Origin: Octopus vulgaris
Lineage: Eukaryota
Length of the DNA stretch: 64,000 nt
Assembly: GCA_951406725.2 (NCBI GenBank)
Contig: OX597834.1
Span: 13,454,001-13,518,000 of the forward strand
Reading direction: 5' to 3'
The notes under the pieces are model-generated. The model worked only from the letters and a program-made list of their open reading frames with translations. It ran no database searches and was not told where the DNA came from. A program made the translations under genes and the position numbers. Positions 2,866 to 59,564 of the stretch are shown piece by piece; the stretch's first letter is position 1; each line of letters starts with the position of its first letter.

Positions 2866-3545
2866 CATATGTGTGAGTGTGTATGTATATAAATATTTTT
2901 ATGCGTGTGTGTATGTTTTTCTCAATATGTCTACCGCAGCGCACGATTCAAAGTAGAGAATGATTGCGATTTGTTGAGAAGTAATAGGATCTGATTGGAA
3001 ATAAAGTAAAATAAGGAGAAACTAAAATCGATCAGACTTAAATTAAAATAATTTTCTGTTTTCTTTTTATTTAAGTGGTTTTCAAAACTCTTCAAAGGAA
3101 GTTTGTGTCATTTTATTCTTTACATAATTATTTCAGTTACTTAATTTTATGGAGTAGACAAATGTTCATGCAGAATTTAAGAAATAATTGCAGTCGCGAT
3201 AAAAGATTTCAAGAGCAATTCCTATAACTTGATGATATGCCTGTACATACGAGTTTGAAAGATATAATTTTCTTAAGTAGTTTCTGGTTTTTGGGTGTAT
3301 TTTTTATCGCATTTTATTAAAACTCCGAAAATGTATTGAAAATGGCGTCAAATTATACTGCAGATACCATAAATTCTGTCACTTTCCGGAAAGATTTATT
3401 TCATTATATTTATTCTTGTTTTTATTTCTCCGGTTTGAGCGAGTGCAGTATTTGATTCACATTCACGCAAAAGCATTGATTTGAAATTTTGACATAATGC
3501 TAGCAAATACGGTCTAGGGGAAAGTCGATCGTATCGAACCCAGTA

Positions 3546-3946
3546 CTTGTGGAGACATTCACCCTGGGCGGGTTGAGTCGGCTTCTTCTACCACCCTCGA
3601 GGCATTCGCCACAGAGAATTCATGGAAGAAGTTTCGTGGGAATATGTGGATTTCACAAGCGGTTCCCAACAATCCCGCATGTAGAGACATCCAGTTTGCC
3701 GCAGATTGTCCGCAGACGCAGAGAAAGAACGACCGAGGAGCCGCCGGTTGCCGAAACAGACACTCCGAGGATTTTCACCAGAGCCCCGTCTGCCGGGTTG
3801 TGGCCCTAATACCACTTGGTGTCAGACCAATCCACCTTGGGTGGCCCTACCAGGAACCGAAGTTCCCGACGGCATAGCTCTGACACTACCCGTTGCCAGC
3901 GTCCCCACCACGATGAGGAAGGGATGGACTTTGGGGACGCAAAGTA
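3546..3946 (-). mobile_element. Non-autonomous bipartite RTE-derived retroelement (RTE 5'UTR plus RTE-type 3' end), 401 bp
   Basis: GC-rich island in AT-rich DNA; 6-bp TSD ccagta at 3540-3545 and 3947-3952. Minus strand has catcgtggtgggg...agagctatgccgtcggg...cctggtagggccacccaagg, typical of RTE-clade (Rex3/BovB-like) 5'UTRs, and ends in ...tctccacaagta (CAAGTA-type RTE tail). No RT ORF. Confidence 0.75.
3784..3940 (-). ncRNA. Candidate HDV-like self-cleaving ribozyme at the 5' end of the RTE-derived element
   Basis: Minus strand: P1 GCGUCCCC/GGGGACGC (8 bp); L3 UCAUCGU; P3 UCC/GGU (one mismatch); P1.1 CA/UG; P4 helices CGGGU/ACCCG and GUGUCAGA/UCUGACAC; J4/2 GCAGAC; short P2 CCCU/GGGG. Manual fold only. 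Confidence 0.5.
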
Positions 3947-4149
3947 CCAGTATGCAACTGGTACCTATTGTATCGAGTCTGAATGAACGAAAATCAATAG
4001 CGACTTCAGCAACCGGTGAACTCAAAATGTAAATTTTGTTAGCTCGCTGCCTTATATTCAAGGAAATATATTGTTCCATCAAAACACTGCGTAGAACGTT
4101 TTAAATTCAGTTAATGAATGAAAATATAGTATATAGAACACCGGTGACT

Positions 4150-5180: not shown

Positions 5181-5321
5181 AGGACGACTTTGGTCCTCCT
5201 TTTGTATTTTTCCTATTGCAGGCAAAACACATCACTTTTTCTATCCGAAATCTTATTGTGGTTAAACTATATATGCACAAAATTCGCTATATTCATAAAT
5301 TTACTATATTTTATATGCAAT

Positions 5322-5484
5322 GGCGCAGGAGTGGCTGTGTGGTAAGTAGCTTGCTAACCAACCACATGGTTCCGGGTTCAGTCCCACTGCGTGGCACCTT
5401 GGGCAAGTGACTTCTGCTATGGCCCCGAGCCGACCAATGCCTTGTGAGTGGATTTGGTAGACGGAAACTGAAAGAAGCTTGTCG

Positions 5485-5515
<31 letters not shown>

Positions 5516-5749
5516 GTTTGTGTGTGTGTTGTGTGTCTGTGTTTGTCCCCCTAGCATTGCTTGACAACCGATGCTGGTATGTTTACGTCCCCGTCACTTA
5601 GCGGTTCGGCAAAAGAGACCGATAGAATAAGTACTGGGCTTACAAAGAATAAGTCCCTGGGTCGATTTGTTCGACTAAAGGCGGTGCTCCAGCATGGCCG
5701 CAGTCAAATGACTGAAACAAGTAAAAGAGATAAAATAGTAAAGAGTAAA
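5322..5749 (+). mobile_element. tRNA-derived SINE family A, full length
   Basis: Head ggcgcaggagtggctgtgtggtaag (A box) ... gggttcagtccc (B box); internal (TA)n/(TG)n; 3' hairpin cagtcaaatgactg; GTAAAAGA-like tail; over 12 copies in the window. Confidence 0.92.
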
Positions 5750-13193: not shown

Positions 13194-14112
13194 ATTCCAA
13201 TTGTGGTGGTTTTGTAGGAGATTTCAAACTGGATCAAACCTCGACCTTCCTTGACGATCGACGTCTGCCTTCGAGTTGTGCATCTTATTGCCAGTCAACA
13301 GCTAACGGATTTTCCTGTCACACTTCTTTACTTCTCTCATATTCTAGTTCAACACATTGAAACTGTAAATAACAACAGGAAATGATAAGGAATTTATAAC
13401 TAACACTTCGTTACGTGCATTTAACTCGAATTTTCGGACTGCTCAAACTCTTCTGTAACACTACTTCTTCAACTTCTCTTCATAATTACATGCTGAATGC
13501 CAGAGCCGCCATTTATTCCGAAGTATTTGTAATTTATTCCTGCTCGAGTTCTTTTATGACTGTCAACATCCAACTCCACTGAATGTGATGTCTTCAATTT
13601 CCCTTCCTGGAAAGTGGCTTTCGCAAAATATGAAGACCGAATTCCAATCCATTGCAATCTAGTGTGATGTTGCTACTCATAACTAGTTTTCCTTTCAAGG
13701 TTGCTGTGGCACATTTTTCTAAGCACACTTTCATATCTATTTCTTTGGTAAATCCTTGTATTGTCTGCAGTAGTGTTTCGAGCTAGCTGTTTATCATTTA
13801 TAGTGTATAGGTTTAGTTCATCCATATCTAAGAGGTGGCTAATCGTTTTGCCATAACATTTGTGTCCGCATCCAGTTCTATTTAGCATGTCTGATAAAGG
13901 TGTCAGTACCAAACAGAAAAGGAATGGAGAGAGCGTGTATCCCTGGAATGTTCCTCCTCTAATGGAGATGGCTTTGTCTGCAATTTATTCATAGAGTGTC
14001 TTATGTATTTCATAATTATTGTTGCTACCTAGCTCATGGCTTATAATTATTGGTGCTACATTGTACATGGCTTATGCTACCTTGTTCATGGCTAGTACTA
14101 CCTTGTTCATGA

Positions 14113-14670
<558 letters not shown>

Positions 14671-15701: not shown

Positions 15702-16096
15702 TATTTCTTTACTACCCACAAGGGGATAAACACAGAAAGGACAAACAAGGACAGACAAACGGATTAAGCGGAATTTGAACTCACAACGTAACGGCAGACG
15801 AAATACGGCTACGCATTTCGCCCTGCGTGTTATTGTTTCTGCCAGCTCGCCGCCTTAGATGATATACCTATTTCTTTATTACCCACAAGGGGCTAAACAC
15901 AAAGAGGACAAACAAGGACAGACAAACGGATTAAGTCGATTACATCGACCCCACTGCGTAACTGGTACTTAATTAATCGACACCGAAAGAAAGAAAGCCA
16001 AATTCGACCTCGGCGGAATTTGAATTCAGAACGTAACGGCAGACGAAATACGGCTACGCATTTCGCCCGGCGTGCTAAAGTTTCTACCAGCTCGCC
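15702..16096 (-). mobile_element. SINE family C (tRNA head, central gcctttcatcctttcggggtcgataaa..aagtaccag domain, MetaSINE-like), two tandem copies
   Basis: Copy 15702-15857 is internally deleted; copy 15869-16096 is near complete; both match 43574 and 44551. Confidence 0.85.
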
Positions 16097-29429: not shown

Positions 29430-30490
29430 GTCTCATTATTGACGTCTGGCTGAATAGTGAACAGTCAATTGCATCATTATGACGAAAAGAATAGCGAACA
29501 TACAGAATGGAAGACTACGTAGGATTGGAAATAGTTACCTGTAACGTGATGACTTGTGCCGGGTATCAAAATGTCAGCACTATGACTGCTGCTAATTACC
29601 ATGTGAACACTAGAACGTATGTACGACGTGGCATGGACAGCTATAGTGAAGGCTACGAAGTCGTGTTGTGTCGACAAGGATTGCGTTGTGACGGCGTCCA
29701 AACGTCCAGATGACAAGTTGATGGATATTCTGGGAAAGGGAATCCAAATCATAATGGGGGAAATGTGTGTTCGAGTTGCCAACATGAAGCGGTGCAATGC
29801 AAGCATCCTGATAGCGAAGGTCAAGGAAGACAGCCTGAGGAAGGTAGACGGGTTCCTGAAAAAGCAGAGGCATCATGTAGACCTGGAGATGATCTGGTTC
29901 TTCTCACATGAACGGAAATAGTCAGGAATTGTCGCAGAAAACAAACAACTACTTTGCCTAAAATCCATGTGAACTCCACGCTTCCCCAATCTGCGATAAA
30001 CTTGGAGTGTGTATTTTCTGAGGTTGGTGCCTTGCCACCGCACATCCTTAAACATGGACTTAGGCTCAATTTAGCAGGTCTAGATGTATTGCGGCTATTC
30101 TGTTATATATGTAAGAGCAAGTTTCAGTACCTTTTGAATTTCTTTGTCGCTGTCGGGCAAAGGATTTTCCAATCCGTACTCTATCTTTTCGATTCTCTCT
30201 CATGATGATGAACCAATTTTCATCTCCTGTTCGGCCACATAGTACTCATAGAGAACATGTTGGCACACCTCACAACGCTTGCACTTGTGCTCAGCAGTAA
30301 GCTGTCTTGGCACTCATGCTGCATAGATTTTAGGGAGGCCGAGCTCATCGTGAAGAAATTTCAGCTGACACAAATTCCAACTAGAGAAATTATCGTACTA
30401 GTGCTCTTTGTTCTAACTTGGCGCGCATTGCTAATGGAGCGTCAAAGCTTACAGTGTAAAGCCACAAGGTGAAATGATGCGACCTGGGCT
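29430..30490 (+). pseudogene. Decayed Tc1/mariner-superfamily (DD37D/maT-like) transposase
   Basis: IWFFSHERK (~IWFFSDEK) near 29890; LECVFSEVGALPPHILKHGLRLN (~LGVVSSEGDVMPPHFF..GLRVN) at 30002-30070; stops and frameshifts. Confidence 0.75.
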
Positions 30491-43573: not shown

Positions 43574-43805
43574 AAGTGGCGAGCTGGCAGATACGTTAGC
43601 ACGCTGGGCGAAATGCTTAACGGTATTTCGCCTGTCGTTACGTTCTGAGTTCAAATTCCCCCGAGGACGACTTTGTCTATCATTCTTTCGGGGTCGATAA
43701 ATAAAGTACCAGTTTCGCACTGGGGTCAATATAATCGACCCAATCACTTTGCCTGTCCTTGTTTTTCCCCTCTATGTTTAGCCCCCTGTGGGTAGTAAAG
43801 AAATA
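43574..43805 (+). mobile_element. SINE family C, full length
   Basis: Head ggcgagctggcaga..gttagcacgc, B box gagttcaaattcc, central domain, tail gggtagtaaagaaata. Confidence 0.9.
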
Positions 43806-44550: not shown

Positions 44551-44968
44551 AAGGCGGCGAACAGGCAGAAACGTTAGTACGCCGGGCGAAAAGCGTAGCG
44601 GTATTTCATCTGCCGCTACGTTCTGAGTTCTTATTCCACCGAGATCGACTTTGCCTTTCATCCTTTCGGGGTCGATAAATTAAGTACCAGTTACGCACTG
44701 GAGTCGATGTCATCGACTTAATCCGTTTGACTGTCCTTGTTTGTCTCCTCTGTGTTTAGCCCCTTGTGGGTAGTAAAGGAATATGTATTTCGCCTGATCT
44801 TACCTTACTGAGTTCAAACTCCGCCGAGGTCGACTTTGCCTTTCATCCTTTCGGGGTCGATAAACTAAGTACTAGTTACGCACTGGGGGTTGATGTAATC
44901 GACTTAATCCGTTTGACTGTCCTTGTTTTTCCCCTCCGTGTTTAGCCCCTTGTGGGCAGTAAAGAAAT
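44551..44968 (+). mobile_element. SINE family C head-to-tail dimer within a single TSD
   Basis: Full monomer to ~44783, then a 5'-truncated second monomer; 14-bp TSD tatatagtacgata on both sides. Confidence 0.88.
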
Positions 44969-58928: not shown

Positions 58929-59535
58929 TTGGTTGGCATCCTTTTTGTCATGGAGACAATGGAGTTGCACATAAAATAGTCTAGTCCGGCTTTTACATTT
59001 CATATCCTGATACATTTCCTGCTGTGGCTGTGTAGTCCTATCCTGGACAAACACTCCCTCTGGCAGGTGCCGCAAATGTAGCGAAGACTGTTCCTGTCTG
59101 GTTGTAATGTCATAGTTTCTTGTTGACGTATTTTCTTGTCTTTCCGTTTCTCCCCTCTCTCTCTGTCACTCCTTTGTTTTCCCTCTTTTACGTTACGTCG
59201 CCAACCTCCACGGTTGCTGGCTATTGTTTCCCAACTGCTAATATTGATGTTGCAGGCCTTCATGTCCCTTTTGCAAACATCCTTGTAACGTAAGAACGGT
59301 CTACCCACAGACCTAGTACCCCTAGCAAGCTCTCCGTAGAGTATGTCCTTGGGGATTCTGCCATCTTTCATACGGCTAACATGCCCAAGCCATCTCATAT
59401 GTCTTTGTGTTAGGAGTGCAAACATGCTTGGTATTCCTGCTTGCTTGAGGACATCTTTGTTTGGGATATGATTCTGACATTTGATGCAGAGGATTTTCCG
59501 GAGGCAGCGCAGGTGAAAGAAGTTTAGGCGACGCT
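58925..59535 (-). mobile_element. 5'-truncated RTE-clade LINE (ORF C-terminus and 3' tail)
   Basis: RLNFFHLRCLRKIL..., MRWLGHVSRMKDGRIPKDILYGEL..GTRSVGRPFLRYKDVCKRDMK, C2H2-like CGTCQRECLSRIGLHSH; tail ggatgccaaccaaccaa. Confidence 0.92.
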
Positions 59536-59564
59536 CTTACATATATATATGTAAATAGATGTGA

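Follow-up and report, generated by a model that had tools for sequence, protein, structure and literature searches.

An HDV-like ribozyme fold predicted at the 5' end of a short, probably internally deleted retroelement of Octopus vulgaris

The element described here, inserted on the minus strand of Octopus vulgaris contig OX597834.1 (assembly GCA_951406725.2), is probably an RTE-derived SIDE headed by an HDV-like core, which is predicted to free the element RNA from read-through transcripts just before G3940. The window is the whole stretch of DNA analysed, 64,000 nucleotides (13,454,001 to 13,518,000 of the forward strand), and positions are counted from its first letter; RNA positions, n, run along the minus strand as n = 3941 - window position. 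That a ribozyme-like fold occupies the 5' end of a TSD-flanked retroelement is supported; the features concerned are collected in Table 1.

Table 1. Positions in the window of the insertion, its junctions and the elements of the predicted fold
Feature	Positions	Strand	Basis
Whole insertion, 401 nt, short internally deleted (bipartite) non-LTR retroelement	3546..3946	-	
TSD, upstream copy, TACTGG	3947..3952	-	
TSD, downstream copy; first 3 nt also match the family tail (microhomology)	3540..3545	-	
Host SINE, part upstream of the insertion; resumes at 3539-3520	3953..4016	-	
Six extra 5' bases, TACTTT: fold-back target copy, partial TSD repeat or inverted tail	3941..3946	-	
HDV-like fold, predicted cut 5' of G3940	3784..3940	-	phage-trained model, Rfam match, descriptor, folding
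P1, 5' strand; partner 3906-3899, possible ninth pair 3932/3907	3933..3940	-	
P2, 5' strand; UCCC (3924-3921) with GGGG (3787-3784)	3921..3927	-	
P3 (two C-G pairs and U.U) and L3 UCAUCGU	3907..3919	-	sequence; contigs
P1.1, 3' strand UG; partner CA 3915-3914	3897..3898	-	sequence; contigs; phage set
P4 domain, 99 nt, multibranched	3794..3892	-	folding
J4/2 GCAGAC, candidate catalytic C at 3792	3788..3793	-	sequence; phage G-C-N-R-A layout
Predicted hairpin, a possible attenuator, capturing J4/2 and some of the P2 3' strand	3755..3794	-	
Remaining LINE-derived 5' part	3604..3783	-	contigs
Internal-deletion breakpoint, 2-nt microhomology	3604..3605	-	contig exits
LINE-derived 3' end: last codons (ASRVVEEADSTRPG), stop 3561-3559, 13-nt UTR, tail start	3546..3605	-	

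The insertion and the core of its fold

The insertion, at 56% GC, stands out from flanks of 30-34%. Three intact copies of the host SINE read straight through the site, which fixes the duplication as TACTGG and places G3940 six nucleotides inside the insertion, as an earlier sequence-only reading had it. The same reading took these six bases as a sign that cleavage had defined the RNA 5' end, which does not hold: TACTTT repeats four nucleotides of the TSD, but its exact reverse complement, AAAGTA, stands immediately upstream of the insertion site in one of the three intact SINE copies (TAAGTA in the other two) and is also the tail unit of the element. The bases could equally have arisen by fold-back copying at the 5' junction and therefore give no pointer to cleavage. 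Where the element inserted, the SINE target already had a CCAGT/ACTGG inverted repeat. The contigs (X1 record 8, X6 record 24) also contain another form of the 5' junction, spanning 3883-4039, with 11-12 differences, mostly in the flank; it is either a divergent allele or orthologue or a second insertion into the same position of a different SINE copy. Copies of abundant SINEs lie at 5320-5730, 15933-16014, 43680-43740 and 44656-44720.

The element has no long ORF, no Pol III A or B box at one mismatch or fewer and no tRNA, whereas a control SINE (5320-5420) shows a B box at one mismatch and A-like boxes at two; the absence of boxes and tRNA rules out a tRNA-derived SINE head.

The head itself can be drawn as the nested double pseudoknot of HDV-like ribozymes, with all five helices in order, although its pseudoknots lie outside what the folding programs model. 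Direct reading of the sequence bears out the perfect 8-bp P1 claimed to start at G3940: G1-C8 pairs with G35-C42, A9-U34 would make a ninth pair, and pair probabilities of 0.77-0.80 rise to about 1.0 when the whole element is folded. P1 thus contains the 6-7 bp from a purine that mark the HDV class, within a helix of 8-9 bp whose G1-C42 pair abuts U43 G44. L3 (U25-U31, 3916-3910), for which the family majority has UCACCGU, is of the expected length of about 7 nt with U, C, C and G at the conserved places, in agreement with the invariant columns of the phage set described below. Its CA can pair with the UG that follows P1, as had been proposed, through C26-G44 (3915/3897) and A27-U43 (3914/3898), within the one or two pairs usual for P1.1. 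P3 consists of C23-G33 and C24-G32 with a U22.U34 mismatch, and P2 of four contiguous pairs, one of them G.U (-5.5 kcal/mol), which an extension of CCA (3927-3925) with UGG (3780-3778) over a 3-nt bulge would bring to seven pairs and -7.3 kcal/mol; the short P2 and the P3 mismatch had been named beforehand as weak points. Every one of the core positions U25, C26, C29, G30, G44, C149 and A152 is present, and the spacing from L3 to P1.1 is one base longer than in the 122 phage matches whose spacing is standard.

Relation to HDV-like ribozymes

No Rfam family reaches its gathering score anywhere in the window. The only Rfam match at E<=10 between 3400 and 4100 is to RF02682, at 14.3 bits against a threshold of 44 (E 6.3), and it starts at 3940. 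The search with an HDV descriptor that the sequence-only reading had suggested, made with a descriptor of our own relaxed with knowledge of this case, gave a single match in 128 kb, at 3940; among 20,000 dinucleotide shuffles of 3549-3946, read on both strands, six had any descriptor match and none had one within 10 nt of the 5' end. To avoid the circularity of this descriptor, a model was trained on 23 phage HDV-like sequences, hand-picked from 124 loci (15 passing a P1/P2 filter and eight failing it, with the single A-U example excluded). Of its nine matches in the window the site is the top one, from 3940, at 16.3 bits with a rough E of 0.034, the next scoring 8.5; the alignment covers the 5' core only, not the long P4.

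Taken together, the descriptor, shuffle and phage-model results make the fold more than chance, though below curated thresholds. The idea that GC-rich helices in a retroelement UTR have merely fallen into this arrangement can appeal to those thresholds, to the prior knowledge built into the descriptor and to the roughness of the model E-value, but two models naive to the sequence both start at 3940, six nucleotides from the TSD, and matches anywhere in shuffled sequence are as rare as stated; we consider it extremely improbable. Homology of the fold to HDV-like ribozymes is, in our judgement, very probable.

The phage sequences also bear on the unusual P1.1. Of the 122 matches with standard spacing, 57 passed the filter, 23 of them distinct, and in all 23 of these well-folded matches the second P1.1 position pairs (C-G 14, U-A 8, A-U 1); the 65 that failed the filter have C-G in 53, U-A in eight, U-G in three and C-A in one. 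In the 23-row alignment this position likewise pairs in every row (U-A 12, C-G 10, U-G 1), counts that are not independent since the sequences are related. Solved structures vary at P1.1 too, including U-A and non-standard pairs (excerpt of PMC13635239). These counts and structures show a P1.1 pair that co-varies across the class, with A-U as a rare form. The substitution of CA/UG for the canonical CC/GG is accordingly a natural P1.1 variant, and by counts of changes among the copies it belongs to the whole family. An alternative register, in which the G at -1 pairs with U43 to give a canonical CC/GG P1.1 and A27 is a private mutation, was dropped because neither T>G at 3914 nor A>C at 3898 occurs at 4% or above in two of the public sequencing runs (X1, X6).

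More broadly, the phage minimal HDV-like or theta ribozymes (excerpt of PMC10879173; RF02682) have the same CC-UC-N-N-CGY-GG core with N-G-G-C-A-A after P1, and share with the element a P4 opened by C-G and a G-C-N-R-A J4/2; they differ in their short P4, P2 of 5-8 bp, standard spacing and adjoining tRNA genes. Phage L005/L189 and L019 share the UCAUCGU loop and the UG. A direct scan for a UCAUCG loop with UG found 25 loci, two with 7/7 pairs in P1 and eight near-identical ones with 6/7. Minimal HDV-like folds with this rare loop and an A-U second P1.1 pair are those of L005/L189, L019, L010, L013-L015, L018, L022, L024 and L025, and L189 has in addition a pyrimidine mismatch, U.C, at the base of P3. 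A looser phage pattern returned 120 loci, eight of them past the filter, with mixed pairings; these are mostly chance and were not used.

A many-copy family probably built from the two ends of a LINE

The stretch or part of it is present in 20 of the 24 listed runs, which carry four organism labels and one metagenome; the small-share metagenome is a fish metagenome (X20, share 0.05). Our evidence on the family comes from the contigs of four public runs, X1, X6, X8 and X18. For most of the element the summed contig depth lies at 1e5-9e5 (X1) or 1e4-5e4 (X6, X8), and the unique 5' flank has a depth of 7-58 in X1 and X6; depth, which is no copy number, points to thousands of copies of head and tail. 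Across 3612 it is far lower (14,182, 1,248 and 590), so that the exact junction form may have only hundreds of copies. Within the window no second copy was found. X18, RNA-like by guess, has 31 contigs on the stretch; as these are without visible ends they were not counted as expression.

Within the ribozyme this copy differs from the family majority at three places: U28->C (99%; 3913, the variable position of L3), A124->G (89-98%, in a linker) and U107->C, two of the three at CpG sites. Of the 70 variant places 40 were listed individually, while counts by kind of change are complete. The listing covers all A>T, A>C and T>G places of X1 and X6, and none of these at 4% or above repairs U22.U34 or converts A27/U43 to C/G, so the CA/UG pair and the U.U mismatch appear family-wide; both look like properties of the family and not decay. 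A repaired P3, with A or G at 3919 or 3907, is excluded by the change counts of X1 and X6; X8 has one A>T place outside those listed individually, which bears on this repair. A caveat to the family-wide reading of both features is that depth at 3920-3939 is 17-44% of that in the neighbouring bin, and heads of another build may have been clipped off there.

The 40 listed places include no compensatory pair, the differences being single changes. The co-variation described for P1.1 is seen at this position among phage ribozymes, and none was seen among the listed places of the copies. Loose ends of sister heads appear at 3894 (11 contigs in X1) and 3887 (10 in X1, eight in X8), and two of three sister-head lines, noisy ones (agreement 0.73 and 0.64), keep the loop CA and the UG after a different P1 3' strand; the loops UCACCGU, UCAUCGU and UCAAAGU are each followed by UG. 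As to the 5' ends of copies, which the sequence-only reading expected to cluster at G3940, X8 has 10 contigs that pass at 3940 from the element into unrelated flanks (agreement 0.42), and none does so among the rows listed for X1, X6 and X18; the expectation is borne out in one run of the four. One X18 piece begins at 3940 and one X6 piece stops at 3931.

At the other end of the 5' part, the family majority has ATG at 3612-3610 (73-95% of depth) where this copy has GTG. Behind 3605 contigs exit the element in all four runs (17 in X1, 14 in X6, 17 in X8, two in X18), and the loose ends, read by hand, form an open frame that is in register with the ASRVVEEADSTRPG codons and stop of the window. 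Before 3604 nine contigs of X8 exit (agreement 0.55), and over the 10 codons available the majority-ATG frame stays open in them. There is a 2-nt overlap between the two exits. These frames would be read most simply as those of a LINE that lost, in a single internal deletion, everything between its first codons and its last. Around the breakpoint (3585-3631), 11 of 15 joints listed skip 31-42 nt, so other junction forms of the short element exist. Before 3543, 58, 61 and 60 contigs exit into a TACT-type repeat, and a repeat tail is found in all four runs; the family thus ends in a short tandem tail that shares its first 3 nt with the target.

The element is short, lacks a long ORF, is flanked by a TSD, occurs in many copies and has as its 3' part the end of a longer coding element, all features of SIDEs; it is likely a SIDE, derived from an RTE-type LINE by internal deletion. 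Its last codons contain a C-terminal D-R-x-x-W motif, which we take to point to RTE. The clade is inferred from this motif together with the tail, the bipartite architecture and the TSD; the partner LINE was not found by protein search, which with the last codons in the window gave three candidates, none at E<=10, another search giving no match. Bipartite elements are reported from the RTE, Ingi, Vingi and R2 clades only, of which RTE carries 5' ribozymes (excerpt of PMC5786205), SIDEs retain the ribozyme and the 3' end (excerpt of PMC3414825), and microsatellite tails are common in RTE (excerpt of PMC9115989).

Scans of viral contigs and prokaryote genomes for element-specific sequence found none, and exact matching of an 18-nt stretch against metagenomes gave 49 loci, all confined to the seed region, which are chance. 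An RTE-like remnant at 59000-59536 (minus strand) was ruled out as the partner LINE by its different 3' end; it holds a 178-aa open frame with no Pfam match and a C2H2-like end, presumably similar to a BovB-type RTE protein at its C-terminus. At 13673-13984 (minus strand) and about 14100-14300, beside a TAA-type array, lies a reverse-transcriptase remnant (weak RVT_1, E 0.0028) that we assume to be R4/Dong-like. A 104-aa open frame of ordinary composition at 29607-29921 (plus strand), with no Pfam match, is perhaps a transposase remnant.

P4, the catalytic strand and the prospect of cleavage

Folded alone, P4 (RNA 49-147) is a closed multibranch (z -3.05; one of 200 shuffles as good) with two long-range helices, CGGGU/ACCCG and GUGUCAGA/UCUGACAC, a UUCG hairpin, a CCACC hairpin and a third hairpin at 3815-3800. 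The sequence-only reading had described the long-range helices and the UUCG hairpin correctly and had passed over the third hairpin; the perfect CCACC-CAA-GGUGG hairpin that it also reported is private to this copy. RNA position 107 (3834) is C in 89-95% of depth in three runs, which gives an A.C mismatch in place of A99-U107, so the perfect hairpin is CpG decay of this copy; by sequence, the C107 strand could alternatively pair with CCGUC (69-73). P4 also holds an exact 9-nt direct repeat (3800-3808 and 3841-3849), each AGGG of which could pair with the 5' strand of P2.

G-C-A-G-A (3793-3789) follows immediately on the closed P4, where J4/2 is expected, a placement made from sequence only; the candidate catalytic C thus lies in GCAGAC, as proposed. 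One reading keeps the core and assigns the 3' half otherwise, with P2 formed by an AGGG inside P4 (3848-3845 or 3807-3804) and another catalytic C. CCCU/AGGG would be four Watson-Crick pairs, the descriptor chose 3848-3845 first, and the covariance-model matches end early, near 3879-3866. Neither AGGG, however, gives a P4 closed at C49, whereas closure of the proposed P4 falls immediately ahead of GCAGA, which is the layout of the phage set, and we think the reassignment very unlikely.

Predicted folds place the catalytic strand in a competing structure. When the whole element is folded, P1 and P4 form (0.91-1.0) and 3794-3778 pairs with 3768-3755, holding C149; in a 166-nt stretch a local hairpin hides this base (0.64-0.71), the stretch as a whole, folded without pseudoknots, having a z of only -1.08. 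Taken alone, the downstream hairpin at 3755-3794 falls short of significance (z -1.60; 15 of 200 shuffles do as well). If the transcript stops at nucleotide 150, the base of P4 forms at 0.96-1.0, which makes a window for co-transcriptional cleavage plausible.

The course of events that we favour would begin with the internal deletion, by which the 5' UTR and first codons of a LINE would have come to adjoin its final codons, UTR and tail. The LINE protein would mobilise the product in trans by target-primed reverse transcription from the tail, priming here resting presumably on the 3 nt of tail-target homology. A read-through transcript entering the element would fold P1 and P4 during synthesis, the weak P2 would close the pseudoknot, and C3792 (C149) would act as general acid in a cleavage before G1; about 30 nt later the downstream hairpin would capture J4/2, so that cleavage would be mostly co-transcriptional. 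The balance tilts towards a family ribozyme able to cut at G3940, and it is somewhat doubtful that this copy would still do so.

A head derived from an HDV-like ribozyme might also have ceased to cut, with an internal Pol II promoter or a reverse-transcription stop fixing its 5' end and with P1 and P4 kept as a promoter or protein-binding structure. The short P2, the P3 mismatch and the extra base are all family-wide, and P2 has at least 5 pairs in R2 ribozymes (excerpt of PMC3774820) and about 7 in most HDV-like ribozymes (excerpt of PMC4908430); yet all core positions are present, and a P3 mismatch is found also in the jewel wasp R2 ribozyme (excerpt of PMC3774820) and in phage L189. The catalytic strand is captured in the predicted folds, and a change at 3756 (77% in X1, 13-17% in X6 and X8) strengthens the capturing hairpin; against this, L1TcRz is inhibited by downstream sequence and active nonetheless (excerpt of PMC3185411). 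Position 3940 is marked by no more than ten contigs and the 3' end by about 60, and the L1Tc head is promoter and ribozyme together (excerpt of PMC3383444), but the sister heads retain CA...UG despite their changed P1 3' strand. Loss of cleavage is, on this evidence, unlikely, though it is the main rival reading.

The reading of a ribozyme-headed SIDE has close parallels. HDV-like ribozymes stand at the 5' ends of R2, R4, RTE and L1Tc/Ingi non-LTR retrotransposons (excerpts of PMC5786205 and PMC6765202), and the element resembles them in the order P1-P2-P3-L3-P1.1-P4-J4/2, in a predicted cut at the first base and in a variable P4. It differs from them in an A-U second P1.1 pair, a U.U under P3, a P1 of 8-9 bp, a P2 of 4 bp or bulged, a multibranched P4 of 99 nt and in that cleavage is predicted only. 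In L1TcRz the immediate downstream sequence can refold the ribozyme and so favours co-transcriptional cleavage (excerpt of PMC3185411), an effect measured there and predicted here. The R2 SIDEs of Drosophila (excerpt of PMC3414825) are likewise short and non-coding, join a head to a LINE 3' end by internal deletion, have a TSD and move in trans; the same bipartite, TSD-flanked, trans-moved build is seen in NARTc and RIME of trypanosomes (excerpts of PMC4035085 and PMC3185411) and in non-autonomous RTE elements such as RTESINE1/2 and WALLSI3 (excerpt of PMC5786205). In contrast to this group, the element is dispersed, many-copy, not rDNA-specific and inside a SINE.

Ribozyme-headed LINEs and their deleted parasites being already known, the concept is not new. 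Judged by titles and the openings of abstracts, none of the papers listed reports an HDV-like or self-cleaving retrotransposon ribozyme from octopus or cephalopods; the word 'ribozyme' is absent from the main texts of PMC13282606 and PMC9115989, and short motifs of the element are absent from supplementary files of PMC5786205 and PMC13282606 and from eight such files of PMC9115989. The family may already be in the supplement of Ruminski et al. 2011 or in Repbase/Dfam. A bolder proposal, which we hold to be unlikely, is that of an active, non-standard HDV-like branch with a co-transcriptional window limited by the hairpin, heading a cephalopod LINE lineage and several of its deleted parasites, whose series of sister loops standard models miss. 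If the element cuts, it adds a many-copy cephalopod example and widens the tolerated HDV core, past the limits of Rfam detection, to a family-wide P3 mismatch and a short P2; host transcripts reading through any of the thousands of dispersed heads could then be cut as well.
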